DNA of 64,000 nucleotides from Lama glama (lineage: Eukaryota), in the NCBI GenBank assembly GCA_028534125.1, contig CM052842.1, positions 12,276,001-12,340,000 of the forward strand, in the 5' to 3' direction. Positions 41,201-63,199 of the stretch are shown piece after piece (the first letter of the stretch is position 1; every line of letters begins with the position of its first letter). The notes beneath the pieces were generated by a model, which saw only the letters and a program-made list of their open reading frames with translations, was not told the origin of the DNA and made no database searches. The position numbers and the translations under genes were made by a program.

Positions 41201-44095
41201 CATCTAAATATTTGGAAGCCTCACTAAAGTTTGAAGAGAAGTCGTTTCATAGCCCTATTGTTTATATTTACCTTGGTCAACATTCTGGCCCAATCTCAAA
41301 CAAAATGGGCAACTTGGAAGGGGGAAGAGTTACAACATATTGCCCAGAAGGAGTCAGTAAGGGTGTGTGCATGCGTGTATGTGTGTGTTCATGTGAGTGG
41401 GTATTAGGTGTGCACATGCACTTTTCATGTGAGGTGTGGGACAGGCACACTCTTGTTGCTTACAGGTACACTGTGGGCAGATGAATATGAACATCTTGGA
41501 GTATGAAACTGACACAGGACTTCTGAGCTCCAATTGATAGCTCCTCTCATATTTTCCAAACTGCTCTCATGAGACACTATTTCTTGCCCTGTGATGGGCA
41601 CCTTCCAACACGTAGATCAAATTGTTTAAAATGAAGTACCAAAATGAGGTGGTGATGAGCAGCAGTAATGATTGACTGGTGGAGAGGAATGCAAAGGATT
41701 CAAAAGAGAGATTGTCTCTTTGGGATTAATTTTGGATTTTCCGAGTGTTCTTCATACCAAAAGTGTTCTGTAGTTCCTTTCTTTAGAGTAAAGCTTTCTT
41801 TTCATTTAAATTATATACACTTATTATAAACAAGCAACAGCGACAAGTGCAAAGGGGAAAGTTAAAAAAAATCATCCAGTATTCGAAGAATAATGATGAC
41901 CAGTATTATATTAGGCGAACATCGTTCTAATGATAGGAACAGAAGGAAGGACAATAAACACCATTGTCCTATGGTTTTCCCCCTACTTTGCTGACTCCTC
42001 TGCCTCTTCCAGTTCTCAGTGGTGAAGGGTCCCAGAGTCGATCCCAGGCTCTCCCCTAATCTCCATCTTTACTTTACGAGAAACCTGGTCAGTTCTATAG
42101 CTTTAAATCATACCTGGATGCTGATGGCTCTCAAATCTGTAATTCCTGCCTTGTCCTTTGGAAATAAAACAGCTCCACTGTGGGGCACTGGAGAGGGAAG
42201 AAACGCTGAGAAAACAGAGATCTAGTTGGATTCTCTTTCTTTCAGTTCTGAAGTTACAAAAACCTTTGATACTTTGAGATACATGTTTACTGCTGACACT
42301 AATTTTTTAATCTAAATGCCTGTCAATACTACCTTATCATTTCTTGAGCCCCTCTACATGTTAGGCATCATGTCATGTGTTTTACATACATCAACTCATC
42401 TTATGCTTATGTAGGGTAGTATTTTAAGAAATAATAAGAAACCCCCAAACCACGACTTTGCATGATAGACAACTTGTTCAAATTGACACAGTTAGTAGGT
42501 GTTAGAGTTAGGATTTGAACTCAGTGGGATTCATGCGCTTTCTGGTCTGCTATACTGCCTATATTTGCATTTCAATATAAACTTTAGTATCAAATTGACA
42601 AATTCAAACACACACATAGAGACACAGACTCAGCTGGGATTCTGCTTGGGACTGCCCTGAATTTATAGATTAATTTGGGGAGAACTGACATCTTTTACTA
42701 TGGAATTTTCCAAATGTGAATTGGTATTTTCCTCCATCTATTTTAGTCTTCTTTAATTTTTCTAATAAGACTTTTCATTGTGAAGCAGTAATTGATCACC
42801 ACAACCCTGATGGGGCAGGGGAATTTCAGGGGTCAGAATTCTAAGACTCAATGGATGAGAAGTACAATAAAAGAACGGTAAAAATGTGGGCAGAAGAAAT
42901 GACTGAAGGACCCACCAAGTAAAGCAACAATTTCAAGAATTTTAAAGTGGATGGCAGTGGCTGGGTGGATAATGTATTATAATATGTAGACAGCAAACTG
43001 CCCTGGGCCCTGCCAGCAACAGGGATGCCAGGATCTCTGGAGAGTACTTGCATGGTGCACTATTGATTCAGCAGTAATTTTTCCTAAGGAGGAGACTGTG
43101 AATGTTAACTGAGGCATGACATTTGTCATCTTTAAAAGTGAAGGGCAGGCTAGGCTGAACCCAGGCCAAGATTGCCTTCCAGGCCCTCCTTCTCTCCCTC
43201 TTCCATTTCTGTAACCTTCTCCAACCTGTTGGCACTGCCTCTTCAGCACCCTCACATTGCTTCAGTACCTTCCCCTTGCCACTCACAGCTAGACCTGCCT
43301 TATCCTTACATTTCTCCATGGCTCCATATCTGTCCCCGCAAGTGCTCCCCCTCCTCATCTCCTCCATTTATTCATATTTAGGGTATTAAAGGGTTCAGAG
43401 AAAGAGTGGACAGGGGATCCAGTTAGTACACATTACATGTGCATTAAATGACAGATGGCTACATAGATATTTCTCAAATTTGGGTCCAAAGAAATAATCC
43501 TATGGATTTGAGAGGTCTTTGGGAATTTGGATAATAATAGCTAATATTTCTTGATCACTTACATGTTCCAGGTGTTGCTTAAAATGCTTTGCATGTATTT
43601 AGTTTCACTATAACCCTCTAAAACAGATGCCCTTACCTCCATTTAACAGATGAGCAAACCTAGCAACACGCCCTTATCCCCATCAAAGAGATGAGCAGTC
43701 ATGCAAAGGCTGAGTCATTAGCTCAAGGCGATATAGCTAGGAAATGGCAGAGTGGGGACTCAAACCTAGGCAGTCTGGCTCCAGAGCAAATGTTCTCAAC
43801 CACTTTGCAATGCTGTCATCTGGGGCTTCCTTGGGACTGGACAGTCCAAGATGGCCTCATGCATGTGCCTGGTAGTTAGCTGGAGCTATTGCCTGTCACC
43901 TCCTCCTCCATGTGCCCTTTCCAGCATGATGCTCTAGATTTTTTTATACAGCAGCCAAATTCCAAGACAGCAAATGCTATGCAGGAAATTATTTTGATGC
44001 AATGGCAGCCTCCAAGTATACCACCAGACAGGTTGTACCATAGGTCATGGAACAGATAGGCTTACAGAACAAATTAAGATGCTTGAAACATATTA

Positions 44096-46899: not shown

Positions 46900-48420
46900 G
46901 TGGGTGCCTCAGAGACAAGAGTGGCCGAAAACTAGATGCGCGCCGACCTGGCAAAGGGCGCAGCTTGTGCGCTTCCATCCCCCAAAGCCTGAGCAGGGCG
47001 CTGCGGCCTTGCCCGTGCCGGGGAAGATGGGCCGCACCCTGGAGCATCGTTCAGAAGCAGCCTAGGAGTTACGCATGGCGCTAAGGTGGACCGGATGACA
47101 GCTGCACTACCTCGCCGAGCGAGGGACTCAAAGCTCTCTTCCTTTTTTCCCTCCGCTGGACTAAAACGTGGCGGAGGCTAGCGCAAGCGGGGCGCGCCCT
47201 CTCTCCCTCCACCTTCACGGACCGGAGACGGTGGAGACGCGCGTGCACGCTTTTTACCCGGGAGGGAGCGCGGCCCGCGAACTGCTCGCTGCGCCTGCGC
47301 GGCCCCGCCCCGCCCCGCCCCTTTTCTTCGCTCCGCCCTGTTACCCCTTATACCACCACTAGGGGTAGAGGCGACGGCTGCGGCCTGACAGCGCGGCTGC
47401 TTTGAGGGCGCGGGAGCGGTACGGAGTGGGGACGAGGGCAGGCAAGAGGGTGGGAAAACCGGCGAGAGAGGAGGGCGGTGCCGGAGAAGGGCGGCGCGTG
47501 GCTGACTCATCCCTCTGGAAGATCAGACTGACAGACACAAACCCTTGCCGAACCCGCCCGCCCGCGCTGCTCCTCCTCGGCCGGGAGGCGCCCGCCCGCA
47601 CCACCCGCCTGCCTTCTCCGTGAGCGCTCTCCCGGCCCGGCCGCCTCTGAGAAAGTTTTTGTCGTCGGGAGGGACCGGAGGCGCTGTGGGCCTTTGGGAA
47701 GGGAAGAGAGACGGAAGAAGAGGCTACAGTCGCGCGGGCCCGAGGAGTGCATGGTGCCCGGCGTCTCGGCTGCCTGTCAAGAGGACATCGGGGCGGGGTC
47801 GGGCTGAGCCCGGCTTCTTCTTCCCGCAGCCTCGCAAGAAATCTCCCTCCCGGGCTGCCGCGGGGTCCCCGCTCCTCAGCCCGCCATGTCCCGGCTGCTG
47901 CCGCTGCTGAGGAGCCGGACCGCGCGCAGCCTGAGGCCGGGCCCGGCCGCCGCCGCGCCTCGGCCGCCGTCCTGGTGCTGCTGCGGGCGGGGGCTGCTGG
48001 CGCTCGCGGCCCCGGGCGGCCCCCGGGCGCTGGGCACCCACCCCAAGAAGGAGCCCATGGAGGCGCTGAACACGGCGCAGGGCGCTCGCGACTTCATCTA
48101 CAGCCTGCACTCCACCGAGAGGAGCTGCCTGCTCAAGGAGCTACACCGCTTCGAGTCCATTGCCATCGCTCAAGGTAAGAGGGGCGAGAGGGGGCGAGCC
48201 GGGGGTAGGGGCGGCGCCCTCCCCTCCCCTCCCCTCCCCCGCCTGCGCCCTGGGAACCGTCCCGCCCCTCGTCCAGGGACCCTCGCCGTGGCCCCACTCG
48301 CCGCCTGGCCCTGCGCCTGGGAAGTGCAAGGGGGGGAACTTTTCGCCTCCTGAGTGTCCCCGGAGCAGGTAGAACGCGCGCGGATCGTGCCAGGCAGCCG
48401 GGGCCAACGTTTGGTTGGTT
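46900..48420 (+). promoter_or_regulatory. TMEM65: TMEM65 CpG island / promoter
   Basis: CpG-dense. Contains NRF1-type TGCGCCTGCGC (47290-47300), tandem GC boxes (47302-47321) and AP-1 TGACTCA (47503-47509). Confidence 0.9.
47886..48174 (+). CDS. TMEM65: TMEM65 mitochondrial inner-membrane protein, coding exon 1 (96 codons + 1 nt); remaining exons lie beyond the window
   Basis: CCGCCATG start, Arg-rich presequence MSRLLPLLRSRTARSLRPG..., conserved THPKKEPMEALNTAQGARDFIYSLHSTERSCLLKELHRFESIAIAQ, and donor CAAG|GTAAGA (GT at 48175-48176). Confidence 0.96.
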
Positions 48421-59949: not shown

Positions 59950-61018
59950 CAGTCAGTCCCTGCTTTATACAGTTCCCATACGAATGAATTTTAGTAACTG
60001 TGCTTTAGTTAAATAACACCAGTCCATAACAAGGTTCAAATTTTATTTACCACAATAATTAACTGTGAGTAATTGCATGAAGTATTAACTTTGCTACTAG
60101 CCCCTCAGGCCACAAGTCACTGTAAAAACTTTTGTGCATTATGATTATGACTAATCATACCACTCTTTCATGGTCTGTCAGTGATCTGTCACTACTTATC
60201 TGTTGTTCAGTTTACACATAGACAGCAAAATATGTAGCTGTGTTGCCTCCTTGTCTCCCAGTGATAAACCTATAAGACATTTTTTAAAAATGGATGATCA
60301 AAAGGGAAGTGACCAAAAAGATGAAAATGCAGCAAAGCAATTAAAAGTGATAATGCTGAAGAGAAATTTTAATCAAATGTAAATGGGGTTGTAGAGGAAA
60401 TAGCTGACTGTGGGAATGTTCACACTGCTGTTGAACTGCTGCCATTTGAGAGACTAGCTAGGCAGCCAGAGGAGCTAAGAGAAGGCAAACTTATAGACAT
60501 AAATGAGGAAAGTGAGGAGGCTGTGATGAAAAGGATGAAGATGTTCCAGGGGAAATGACTCTGCTAAAAAATTCACTCACAGAGATATTTCATGGTATCA
60601 AAAATACGAAAGATAAAATGTGAGCTATTTCAGACTTAGAAAGGAGTGTGACAGGTCACCAAGGTGTAGAAAAGATGCTTGCTCCATACTGTAAGTTATA
60701 TGATGAGAAAATGAGTGCTAGCACTATTGAAGCTACTTTGGATTTTTTTTTTAGCAAAGAAATGAAACACATTACTTCTTAGTGTTTCTTATATTTTAAA
60801 TTACAGTATAGTACAGAAACAGTTTTAGTATTTTAAAAATTTCCCTCTATATTTATAACTGCTAGTAAGAGAATTTTTAATGGTTTGAAATAAAAAGTTT
60901 AAAGGTCATACAACAACTGTGATTTTTTTCCCGTTGGTCATTAAGATTGCTTTGAATGGTTTCAGCTCGCATTGTCATTTTATGTCCCCACACTACTGTG
61001 CAAAGTGAGGACTGCCCA
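59950..61018 (+). mobile_element. Non-autonomous TcMar-Tigger DNA transposon, apparently full length
   Basis: Degenerate ~23-bp terminal inverted repeats CAGTCAGTCCCTGCTTTATACAG and CTGTGCAAAGTGAGGACTGCCCA, the latter followed by TA; internal acidic transposase C-terminal remnant. Confidence 0.75.
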
Positions 61019-61120
61019 TATTCTAGTATGTTTCACTTCAAAATTTTGTAAACATTTTAAAATTTACATATATTTTATTTATGTAATTGCTTGAGTACAT
61101 TGATTTGAAAATATTTTTAG

Positions 61121-61201
61121 CAGGCAGATATCCCAAACCCGAGATTGCCATTGTGAAGCGAGCGAAGGAGGTATCATCAGCAGAGACCCCTGATAGTTTT
61201 G
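61121..61201 (+). CDS. Candidate 81-nt in-frame cassette exon of TMEM65 (AGRYPKPEIAIVKRAKEVSSAETPDSF)
   Basis: TTTTTAG| acceptor at 61120 and TTG|GTATAG donor at 61202; symmetric phase 1-1 and stop-free in the exon-1 frame. Speculative, with no transcript evidence available here. Confidence 0.35.
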
Positions 61202-63199
61202 GTATAGTACAATCTTGCAGTATTGATTGTTTGTCAGATGTTTATTGCAAGTGGAAAAGCATCTGTTTGACAGAACTTCTTGCTTGTTTGAAATAGAGTG
61301 CTTTGGTTATAATGACAGTCTTTTTTCTTTTTCTTTTTTTTTTTTTGAATCAGTGTTTTAGACTATCTACAGAATGTTTATTTTTATTATCTAACCCTAG
61401 ACCTTGTAGATATGATGGACTAATAATTGCATGTTTAATTAACTGAAGAATTACATTTATGACCTTAACAAAAGACAAAATCACTTATATGTAATTATAT
61501 TTAAATAGCGTATTTTAAAAGTTGTTGAAATAACCATAACAAGTGAGACATAGGAAGCAACAAAGATTGAATTTCTTTAGGATGAATGAATAGGACAAAA
61601 GGGCCACACACAGGGAAACCCTCAGAATATTGCAAAGGAAAAGTGTATTTAAGTAACTGAGCTTTAGGAATATGCATTTAAAAAATATACCCTTGAATAG
61701 TTTGAAAGCCTTATATAAGTTCATTTTAGGGCCATTCATGAAGGTTTTTTTAGATGCAGTCTCCATGCAGCTTGGTATCTAACTTATGTTGCATGCTGTG
61801 GTGGTGGTGGTGGTAGTAAAGGAATTGTGCTGAGTGTGCGTGTGTGTATGGGGTGGAGGAGGGAAGAAGAAATGAAAATAAATGTCTCTCTGTCCATATT
61901 TTATTTTTTGATTACTATTTAATAGACGCATTGCCTAAGAAGTATAACACAATGTATTGAAAAGAATCAGAAATATTTTATGGACCAATTGAAATTTTGT
62001 AAGGATAAAGGGTAAATATAACTCGGTTTTCTTAGGCTGTACGTATACTGTCAAGAGCAAAAAGCTAGATTGTGAGAACCTCCAAGAAATGTAGAGGCTT
62101 AGGGTGTATGTGTGTGTGTATACACATATGCACACATGTATGTATATATTAACATATTAGTGCATTGCAACATTCCCCTAGTTTGCTCTACTTTGCCAGT
62201 TCTAATGTAATTCTGAAATTGAAAAATTTTAATCTCTGTGTGTGCAGAAGTCAAACGTTTAGTGAAAATGTCTTTTGAAGGGTAAAGTTTTAATTGTGAA
62301 TTATTCTGGATTGTTTAAATAGCTCTCATTTTTAGGACAATGTAAGGGGAAAGAAATGATATTTATTCTATGTATGATGGCAAATTACATCACTAGGAGG
62401 TAAGGTTCTGCTGAACAATAACTAAACTAATAGTAGGATTTAACCTTTCAGTGATCACCTTTTGAGACTCAGTCTTTAGTTGTATCCCCCTAATGCACTG
62501 CAGTGTGCTTCTACATGAATGTTTAGGTGGTACCTCTCTATTTTTTTTTTAAATCCTACTGGTTACACAATAAAGAAGAAATATAGAATCAGAATCTTAG
62601 AGCTAAAAAGGATCCAGAGACCGAAACTCATTTTATATAGCATGAAACTGATATATATATATAAGAGCAGGGATTAGTGTCAAGGTCTTTGGATTTTTAG
62701 TTCAGTGCTCTTTTCACTGTAATAAATTTATTCAGCATTAGCAGGGGAGATTAGTACTAGACTATAGGGTATCCAGTTGCTCTGAAACCAGAAACCATGT
62801 AAATTTCCCATTTAGAAATGTTGTATTTGGTAACCTTAATAAATTAGTTGATTTCCTCCTCTTTCTTTTAACTTTGATGGAGTTTTGAAAATGACTTATC
62901 TGAAAGGGAATGATTTCTTAAGAGAGAAAAAAGGCAATTTGAAAAGGTATTAGTATTTTAGTTAATTGTGGTTTTACTTCAATTTCAAATATTAATGCAT
63001 GACCAATGTTTTGACAATGTCTTTTACATATGATTGATTCTTGGTTCTTCTATGTCTTCCTATTGAGAATTTACTCATTGAAAGAGAAGTAGAACAAGAA
63101 AATGAGAATCTGGGTTCTAGACCCAGTTGTGTGTCCTTAAGTCAGTCACTTAACTACTCTGGACCTGAGTGGCTGGATATTCAAAATGGAGAATTAAGT

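Follow-up and report, generated by a model that had tools for sequence, protein, structure and literature searches.

A conserved in-frame cassette exon in TMEM65 intron 1, with candidate signals for tissue-specific splicing

The first intron of TMEM65 in the llama (Lama glama) contains an 81-nt segment, called exon A here, that is almost certainly a real cassette exon and that, to judge by the orthologous proteins, is at least as old as the tetrapods. It lies in the window, the 64,000-nucleotide stretch of DNA that was analysed, which covers the 5′ part of the camelid gene. Conservation and annotation settle the status of the exon, and the splice-site pattern does not. We favor, at a probability of about 0.55, the view that exon A is a conserved, regulated splice switch of excitable tissues that would tune mitochondrial Na+-dependent Ca2+ efflux.

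Exon A in the llama gene

Translation of the coding part of exon 1 gives 96 residues, with 100% identity to a dromedary TMEM65 record, and the exon ends at 48174 with the donor AAG/GTAAGA. The remaining gene was mapped on eight adjoining stretches of the same genome, in coordinates extended from those of the window. Exons 2 to 7 were located downstream, exon 2 at 72945-72989 and the start of exon 7 at 86942, and intron 1 measures 24,770 nt. In the encoded protein, three membrane helices form a domain that follows the matrix-side N-terminal part; on the camel isoform with exon A, the PF10507 (TMEM65) model matches residues 143-249 (E = 1.7e-45).

The preliminary description, made from the sequence alone, had reported a stop-free segment between an AG and a GT that leads from phase 1 back to phase 1. 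On re-reading the sequence this proved right, as did its coordinates for exon A, the end of exon 1 and the downstream motifs (Table 1). Exon A does keep three CpGs (at 61140, 61159 and 61163) in AT-rich surroundings, with a GC content of 51% versus 32% for the intron, and at least three CpGs are found in 85 of 17,100 81-nt windows of intron 1. It had also been called purine-rich; the direction is correct, but the excess is only mild (57% versus 47%).

Exon A is not a recognizable repeat, as the description had it: it is single copy, and a repeat search of 61000-61500, which ignores very common words, returned the self-match and three 35-nt matches at the T-rich tract only. The dispersed repeat that precedes it, presumably a Tigger-type DNA transposon by its resemblance, has matches that mostly stop at query base 217, about 105 nt upstream of the exon A acceptor. 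A transposon origin of exon A was rejected because the exon is single copy and the neighboring repeat ends before it.

Table 1. Features of the window around TMEM65 exon A (offsets are counted from the exon A donor)
Feature	Position	Strand	Remarks
TMEM65 exon 1, coding part	47886..48174	+	Encodes targeting peptide and matrix helix pair; donor phase 1
Dispersed repeat end	60800..61016		Mapped at its right end; 40/40 scored candidates match, at 69-78% identity
Acceptor region, tandem TAG/CAG (NAGNAG)	61098..61123	+	AGs before 61121 and 61124
Cassette exon A	61121..61201	+	81 nt, 27 residues, in frame; 78 nt if second AG used
Possible inner donor GAG/GTATCA	61171..61176	+	50-nt form, frameshift
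Exon A donor TTG/GTATAG	61202..61207	+	4/9 consensus match
Intronic element with both TGCT motifs	61269..61316	+	+68 to +115; likely conserved with marsupial
CTAAC/ACTAAT/TGCATG cluster	61391..61433	+	+190 to +232; candidate QKI/RBFOX enhancer, from sequence
Second CTAAC...TGCATG pair	61779..61795	+	+578 to +594; CTAAC at +578, TGCATG at +589

By a crude count, the splice sites of exon A are the weakest among the internal exons of the gene. Its acceptor region has 11 pyrimidines in 20 positions, versus 13-18 in the other internal exons and 15-18 in exons 2-7, and its donor agrees with the donor consensus at 4 of 9 positions, versus 6-7 for exons 1-6 and exon B (see below). A read-through record from the dunnart continues past the exon A donor with G-I-V, matching the camelid DNA. 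A crude filter with a donor cut-off of 5, below which exon A's own donor falls, found 17 stop-free, frame-keeping AG..GT segments in intron 1, so that the splice-site pattern on its own is weak evidence for an exon.

The tandem acceptor appears to vary between lineages. Position 2 of the insert is Cys in most mammals, and Gly2 creates the NAGNAG. At the level of gene models, eight records use the second AG (camels, Sturnira and hedgehog) and seven use the first AG with Gly2, the camel models showing both the 27- and the 26-residue forms. Second-AG models are confined to camels, a phyllostomid bat and hedgehog, which likely reflects three separate gains. In horseshoe bat models (P0069 and P0076) exon A encodes 24 residues, as would be expected if Rhinolophus had acquired a new inner donor that keeps the frame.

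Conservation of exon A and a second cassette in the same loop

Joining exon 1, exon A and exons 2 to 7 gives an isoform of 265 residues, 264 of which are identical to the wild-camel Camelus ferus model XP_032323684.1. With the second AG the isoform has 264 residues, 263 of them identical to another C. ferus model, and the skipped form has 238. Thus, the exon was not hidden, as had been claimed, since RefSeq models of all three Camelus species already annotate it. The claim of a frame-preserving exon that adds 27 residues before the membrane domain is borne out by annotated isoforms and by conservation, and orthologous inserts with the frame kept were found when the insert was sought in mammalian TMEM65 isoforms.

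The curated rat protein NP_001094465.1 (A1L1L9), listed with the cDNA AAI29128.1, contains the insert, and so do mouse XP_006521567.1 and chimpanzee XP_024201038.1. The placentals that carry it include primates, colugo, rodents, rabbit, artiodactyls, perissodactyls, carnivores, pangolins, bats, hedgehog and xenarthrans; beyond placentals it is found in marsupials, birds, the anole lizard and a tree frog. The lizard (XP_067323406.1) and frog (XP_069813223.1) inserts both start with A-S-R-[FY]-P-K at the same junction, and a partial alligator record resembles the end of exon A. Among the records returned, none from fish, monotremes or afrotherians showed exon A. No human record with exon A was found among the five human records returned, all without the insert, with 15 of the 21 members of the chimpanzee cluster listed.

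The end of exon 1 and the start of exon 2 are both visible in 252 of 478 TMEM65 proteins. Exon A is present in 100 of these, exons A and B in 30, exon B in 40, no insert in 76 and another arrangement in 6; two of the searches were aimed at inserts, so the sample is biased toward them and gives no measure of abundance. Included and skipped forms are both recorded in chimpanzee, vole, armadillo and horse. The records are not independent, because most are automated models that may copy one another.

Constraint on the insert was assessed in 39 aligned mammal and bird isoforms picked for carrying it. The insert has 27 residues in 36 of them and 26 in the other 3, and A1, R3, P5, K6 and E22 are invariant. 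Mean column identity is 80% in the insert; it is 79% in the targeting peptide, 91% in exon 2 and 98% in the matrix helices. The camelid insert shares 26 of 27 residues with that of chimpanzee, 15 with opossum and 14 with duck. In all 39 isoforms the first 16 residues are net basic and the remainder net acidic. R-[YF]-P-K persists to the frog, whose insert retains little beyond RYPK. The insert is predicted to be disordered and its middle is variable, which is compatible with a tolerated linker, and the exon A peptide has no Pfam match.

Ten kilobases downstream lies a second in-frame cassette, exon B (extended coordinates 71264-71359; 96 nt, 32 residues, phase 1), which inserts into the same loop of the protein. 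It is followed by TGCATG at +16 and +92. Exon B is near-invariant from carnivores and ungulates to marsupials, and was not seen in rodent, ape or bird records among those compared. It occurs alone or combined with exon A, and the 30 records with both argue that the two exons are not mutually exclusive. The llama exon B has one Ser that is absent from all 10 Camelus records. The preliminary description had thus overlooked the existing annotation, the age of exon A and this second cassette.

Other insertions were observed in the gene. A candidate third exon in the intron between exons 2 and 3, at about 75122-75183 (extended), matches a 20-residue insert in squirrel; from its likely acceptor it measures 62 nt, which would shift the frame. 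In rat, the available part of PMC6613909 reports an exon between Tmem65 exons 2 and 3, with an inclusion of 9-28% in aorta versus 1-3% in cultured cells. Horse models (P0062, P0064 and P0071-P0073) have, at the exon A junction, an additional insert of 60 residues that matches nothing in the camelid region. Within intron 1, positions 62332-62400 and 63080-63145 of the window resemble additional segments of a TMEM65 model from brown bear, with matches of about 61-64%; one camelid frame appears open, and these stretches are probably lineage-specific noise.

Downstream motifs and possible tissue-specific inclusion

The motifs reported downstream of exon A were all verified: CTAAC at 61391, ACTAAT at 61419, TGCATG at 61428 and 61790, and TGCT at 61281 and 61299. 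In the first cluster, CTAAC, ACTAAT and TGCATG start at +190, +218 and +227 from the donor, respectively. For adult mouse heart, with flanks of 200 nt, the available text of PMC10202634 describes ACUAAY downstream of an exon as a mark of activation by QKI, accompanied by an enrichment of RBFOX motifs. The ACTAAT and TGCATG that follow exon A sit just past a flank of that size, and the CTAAC sits at its edge. The cassettes activated by QKI and RBFOX in striated muscle, including exons 3a/3b of the mitochondrial Slc25a3 gene, resemble exon A in combining a weak exon, ACUAAY and UGCAUG downstream and a mitochondrial inner-membrane target; they differ in that the exon A motifs are outside the 200-nt flank and in that exons A and B can be included together (PMC10202634, same part).

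Of 2,364 300-nt windows of intron 1, the site itself included, 2.1% contain both classes of hexamer, as do 1.2% of 9,240 windows farther on. The pattern CTAAY-N2-12-TGCATG, which was picked after seeing the site, is found four times in the window on both strands, versus 1.0 expected, and 3 of 100 shuffles reach four. Upstream of TMEM65, the minus strand has two CTAAY..TGCATG pairs at a distance of 160 nt (43700-43721 and 43858-43879), and a divergent transcript may have an exon between them.

A dunnart read-through model (P0218) contains 71 residues of translated intron. Compared without gaps along the entire camelid intron, they match best at 61269-61322, with a score that 4 of 200 shuffles reached against the intron and 2 of 2000 against the 300 nt after the exon. 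The match is at +68 in the camelid and, worked out by hand, at +63 in the dunnart. A flanking element over the two TGCT motifs is thus likely conserved between camelid and dunnart, which says nothing about the QKI and RBFOX sites. A search of metagenome contigs for orthologous intron DNA gave 0 matches.

Weak splice sites, downstream motifs and a flanking element shared with the dunnart all fit a regulated exon. From the weak sites and the candidate QKI/RBFOX-type motifs we infer that inclusion of exon A is biased toward muscle, heart or neurons. The weak sites would lead to skipping by default, and QKI and RBFOX bound downstream would raise inclusion in striated muscle or neurons. TMEM65 is abundant in brain, heart and soleus, according to the available text of PMC13254257. 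RNA runs that contain the stretch comprise 20 entries from 8 studies; these are assembled contigs, most of them lacking a tissue label, and carry no weight on inclusion level or tissue.

The strongest alternative, which we regard as possible and distinctly less probable, is that exon A belongs to a conserved minor isoform, present at a low level in many tissues, that alters the length or stability of a linker and involves no muscle, heart or neuron switch. The predicted disorder of the insert agrees with this, as do the distal position of the motifs and their co-occurrence in 2.1% of intron windows. It also agrees with the absence of an exon A event from the neural, cardiac, muscle and aorta splicing tables that we searched. 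No such event is present in the accessible text of the supplements of PMC7782589, PMC5577920, PMC6952364, PMC8187152 and PMC12925949, several of which hold little text, nor in the 12 of 15 supplementary files searched for PMC5989265. The rat aorta table of PMC6613909, as available, lists the Tmem65 exon described above, which falls between exons 2 and 3, but not exon A; in the accessible part of PMC5582454 Tmem65 figures in a gene list only. However, this absence would be expected if the annotation used in those studies lacked exon A. The two CTAAY-TGCATG pairs after exon A, the TGCATG copies at +16 and +92 after exon B and the element shared with the dunnart also argue against a mere minor isoform.

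Control at the level of RNA appears improbable. In that scheme the inner donor would yield a frameshifted, decay-prone message that lowers TMEM65, the 27-residue form being a tolerated by-product. The inner donor matches the consensus at 5 of 9 positions, versus 4 for the outer one, and the resulting stop in exon 2 lies five junctions ahead of the last exon. The poison exon proposed in the preliminary description is computationally possible for the llama sequence: it would be 50 nt long and would lead, 125 residues into the protein, to a stop in exon 2. It is not a general feature, because the inner GT requires Val18, which is present in only 24 of the 39 aligned orthologues; the GT is impossible in the other 15, and a conserved poison (NMD) exon was rejected on that ground. 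Preservation of length and frame from mammals to birds, and of R-[YF]-P-K to the frog, likewise speaks against control through decay.

The matrix-side loop and possible consequences for Ca2+ efflux

The available portions of PMC12830682 and PMC13254257 place the N-terminal part of TMEM65 on the matrix side. In AlphaFold models (pTM 0.49 and 0.59), the helix at 76-97 ends at the exon 1 junction, and the insert enters the matrix-side loop that leads from the conserved pair of helices to the first helix in the membrane. The link to this long helix measures 8 residues in the skipped bovine form and 35 in the form with exon A, whose insert is modelled as coil, with a pLDDT of about 74 at residues 91-100 and about 50 after. 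No solved TMEM65 structure was found by sequence or fold search. This N-terminal part, as a "matrix hook", has been modelled against the regulatory loop of NCLX, according to the accessible part of bioRxiv 2023.10.06.561062.

If exon A is a regulated switch, the stretched link would display R-[YF]-P-K right at the end of the helix, in an insert that is basic in its first half and acidic in its second. This would alter the control of transport by the matrix domain, or its contact with NCLX or with a second TMEM65 chain, and leave the ion path unchanged. Inclusion of exon B, alone or with exon A, would give four linker states.

A different consequence, to which we give little credence, is that the insert alters the processing or location of TMEM65 (for example cleavage, import or the reported intercalated-disc pool) and not transport, part of the "long" band in heart being the mature form with exon A or with both exons. 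The blots in the available text of PMC9579145, PMC12830682 and PMC13254257 have only bands of about 25 and 17-20 kDa, which are interpreted either as precursor and mature protein or as a long and a short form, and PMC9579145 describes forms of 25 and 17 kDa in heart. Exon A adds 2.9-3.0 kDa, exon B 3.5 and both 6.5 to a mature chain of about 20 kDa, and the location of TMEM65 is disputed (PMC12830682, in part). Conversely, the unprocessed canonical chain of 25.0-25.5 kDa accounts for the upper band alone, the targeting peptide lies in exon 1 and is unaltered, and endogenous TMEM65 carrying a tag is located mainly in the mitochondria of heart and brain (PMC13254257, available text). Lastly, a chance open frame or transposon remnant spread by automated annotation can be dismissed as very improbable: despite the weak splice sites, the 17 similar open segments, the repeat ending 105 nt upstream and the preponderance of predicted records, the exon is single copy, the curated rat record has a cDNA accession, substitutions preserve length and frame in mammals and birds, and the lineage-specific second-AG forms occur only where residue 2 is Gly.

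The same loop carries other additions in distant homologues. An EF-hand-like motif is found there in 6 of 140 distant representatives (P0395, P0419, P0423, P0438, P0449 and P0466), from unicellular eukaryotes, with one cluster named from the cryptophyte Hemiselmis. All six match Pfam EF-hand models, and the match in the loop exceeds the curated cut-off in P0419 and P0466. P0466 has additional EF-hands beyond the membrane domain. Six further representatives (P0380, P0405, P0442, P0461, P0465 and P0467; mosquito and crayfish are named) share an insert of about 45 residues, which is missing from a locust "isoform X2" and others (P0390, P0429 and P0430), and this pattern suggests an independent alternative exon in arthropods.

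The four kinds of insert in this loop (exons A and B, the arthropod insert and the EF-hand inserts) were compared as profiles, and homology was rejected: for each of the six pairs, 15-69 of 100 column shuffles did as well. Exons A and B are therefore not shown to be duplicates, and a resemblance between RYPKP and RFGRP was discarded after the same shuffles. Exon A as an EF-hand Ca2+-binding loop was likewise rejected, since it lacks a Pfam match and its profile against the EF-hand inserts was equalled by 15 of 100 shuffles. As these four kinds of insert share a location and no detectable homology, the loop seems to have repeatedly taken up regulatory-looking additions. A broader proposal, which we consider rather unlikely, is that it serves as a matrix-side regulatory socket. 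Some unicellular eukaryotes would fill it with an EF-hand Ca2+ sensor, arthropods with an optional insert of 45 residues and tetrapods with two cassettes that can be combined. At this socket, tissue-specific splicing would determine whether TMEM65 exchanges Na+ for Ca2+ and in what manner, either by itself or via NCLX.

Two known systems resemble a regulated exon A. MICU1.1 is a skeletal-muscle splice form of the uniporter gatekeeper, in which four added residues act on the uptake side, in the intermembrane space, with a demonstrated function. Both are short optional exons in the soluble part of a mitochondrial Ca2+-handling protein, and that of MICU1.1 alters regulation by tissue. In contrast, exon A adds 27 residues on the efflux side, in the matrix, and is known here from sequence. 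In NCX1 (SLC8A1), the alternative exons A-F lie in the folded Ca2+-binding domain 2 and tune regulation by tissue without touching the ion path. The likeness is that a single regulatory loop in a Na+/Ca2+ exchanger takes several cassettes; the fold is unrelated, and exon A is predicted to be disordered and has no Pfam match.

The annotated long TMEM65 isoforms of rat, mouse, chimpanzee and C. ferus have the same exon, junctions and 27-residue insert as the llama. They are database entries, for which the literature searched describes no tissue pattern, regulation or function; exon A is known as annotation and unstudied as biology. Titles and abstract openings disclosed no paper on it, though Zhang 2025 (Nat Cell Biol), Garbincius 2025 (Nat Metab) and bioRxiv supplements could mention isoforms. 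The peptide occurred in 0 papers in a full-text search, and searches by accession and phrase returned two papers, neither of them on exon A to judge by the title and the opening of the abstract. In their available text, the main TMEM65 papers, searched by term, mention no splice isoform, and one labels the 25- and 17-kDa bands isoforms. VastDB or similar databases and spreadsheets may well list exon A already.

Since exon A was already annotated, the discovery at the sequence level is modest. It concerns a protein whose loss is lethal in mice by three to four weeks (PMC13254257, available text) and which is central to a dispute on mitochondrial Ca2+ export, as to whether it acts alone or through NCLX (PMC13483046, in part). 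The references differ, and this is a warning: the curated rat entry is the long form, and Swiss-Prot gives the short form for the human and bovine proteins. If true, the regulatory-socket proposal would help explain the disagreement between laboratories that use the short form. An exon kept since frogs, at the end of a matrix domain modelled against NCLX, would make it cheap to test directly whether Ca2+ efflux is under tissue-specific control.
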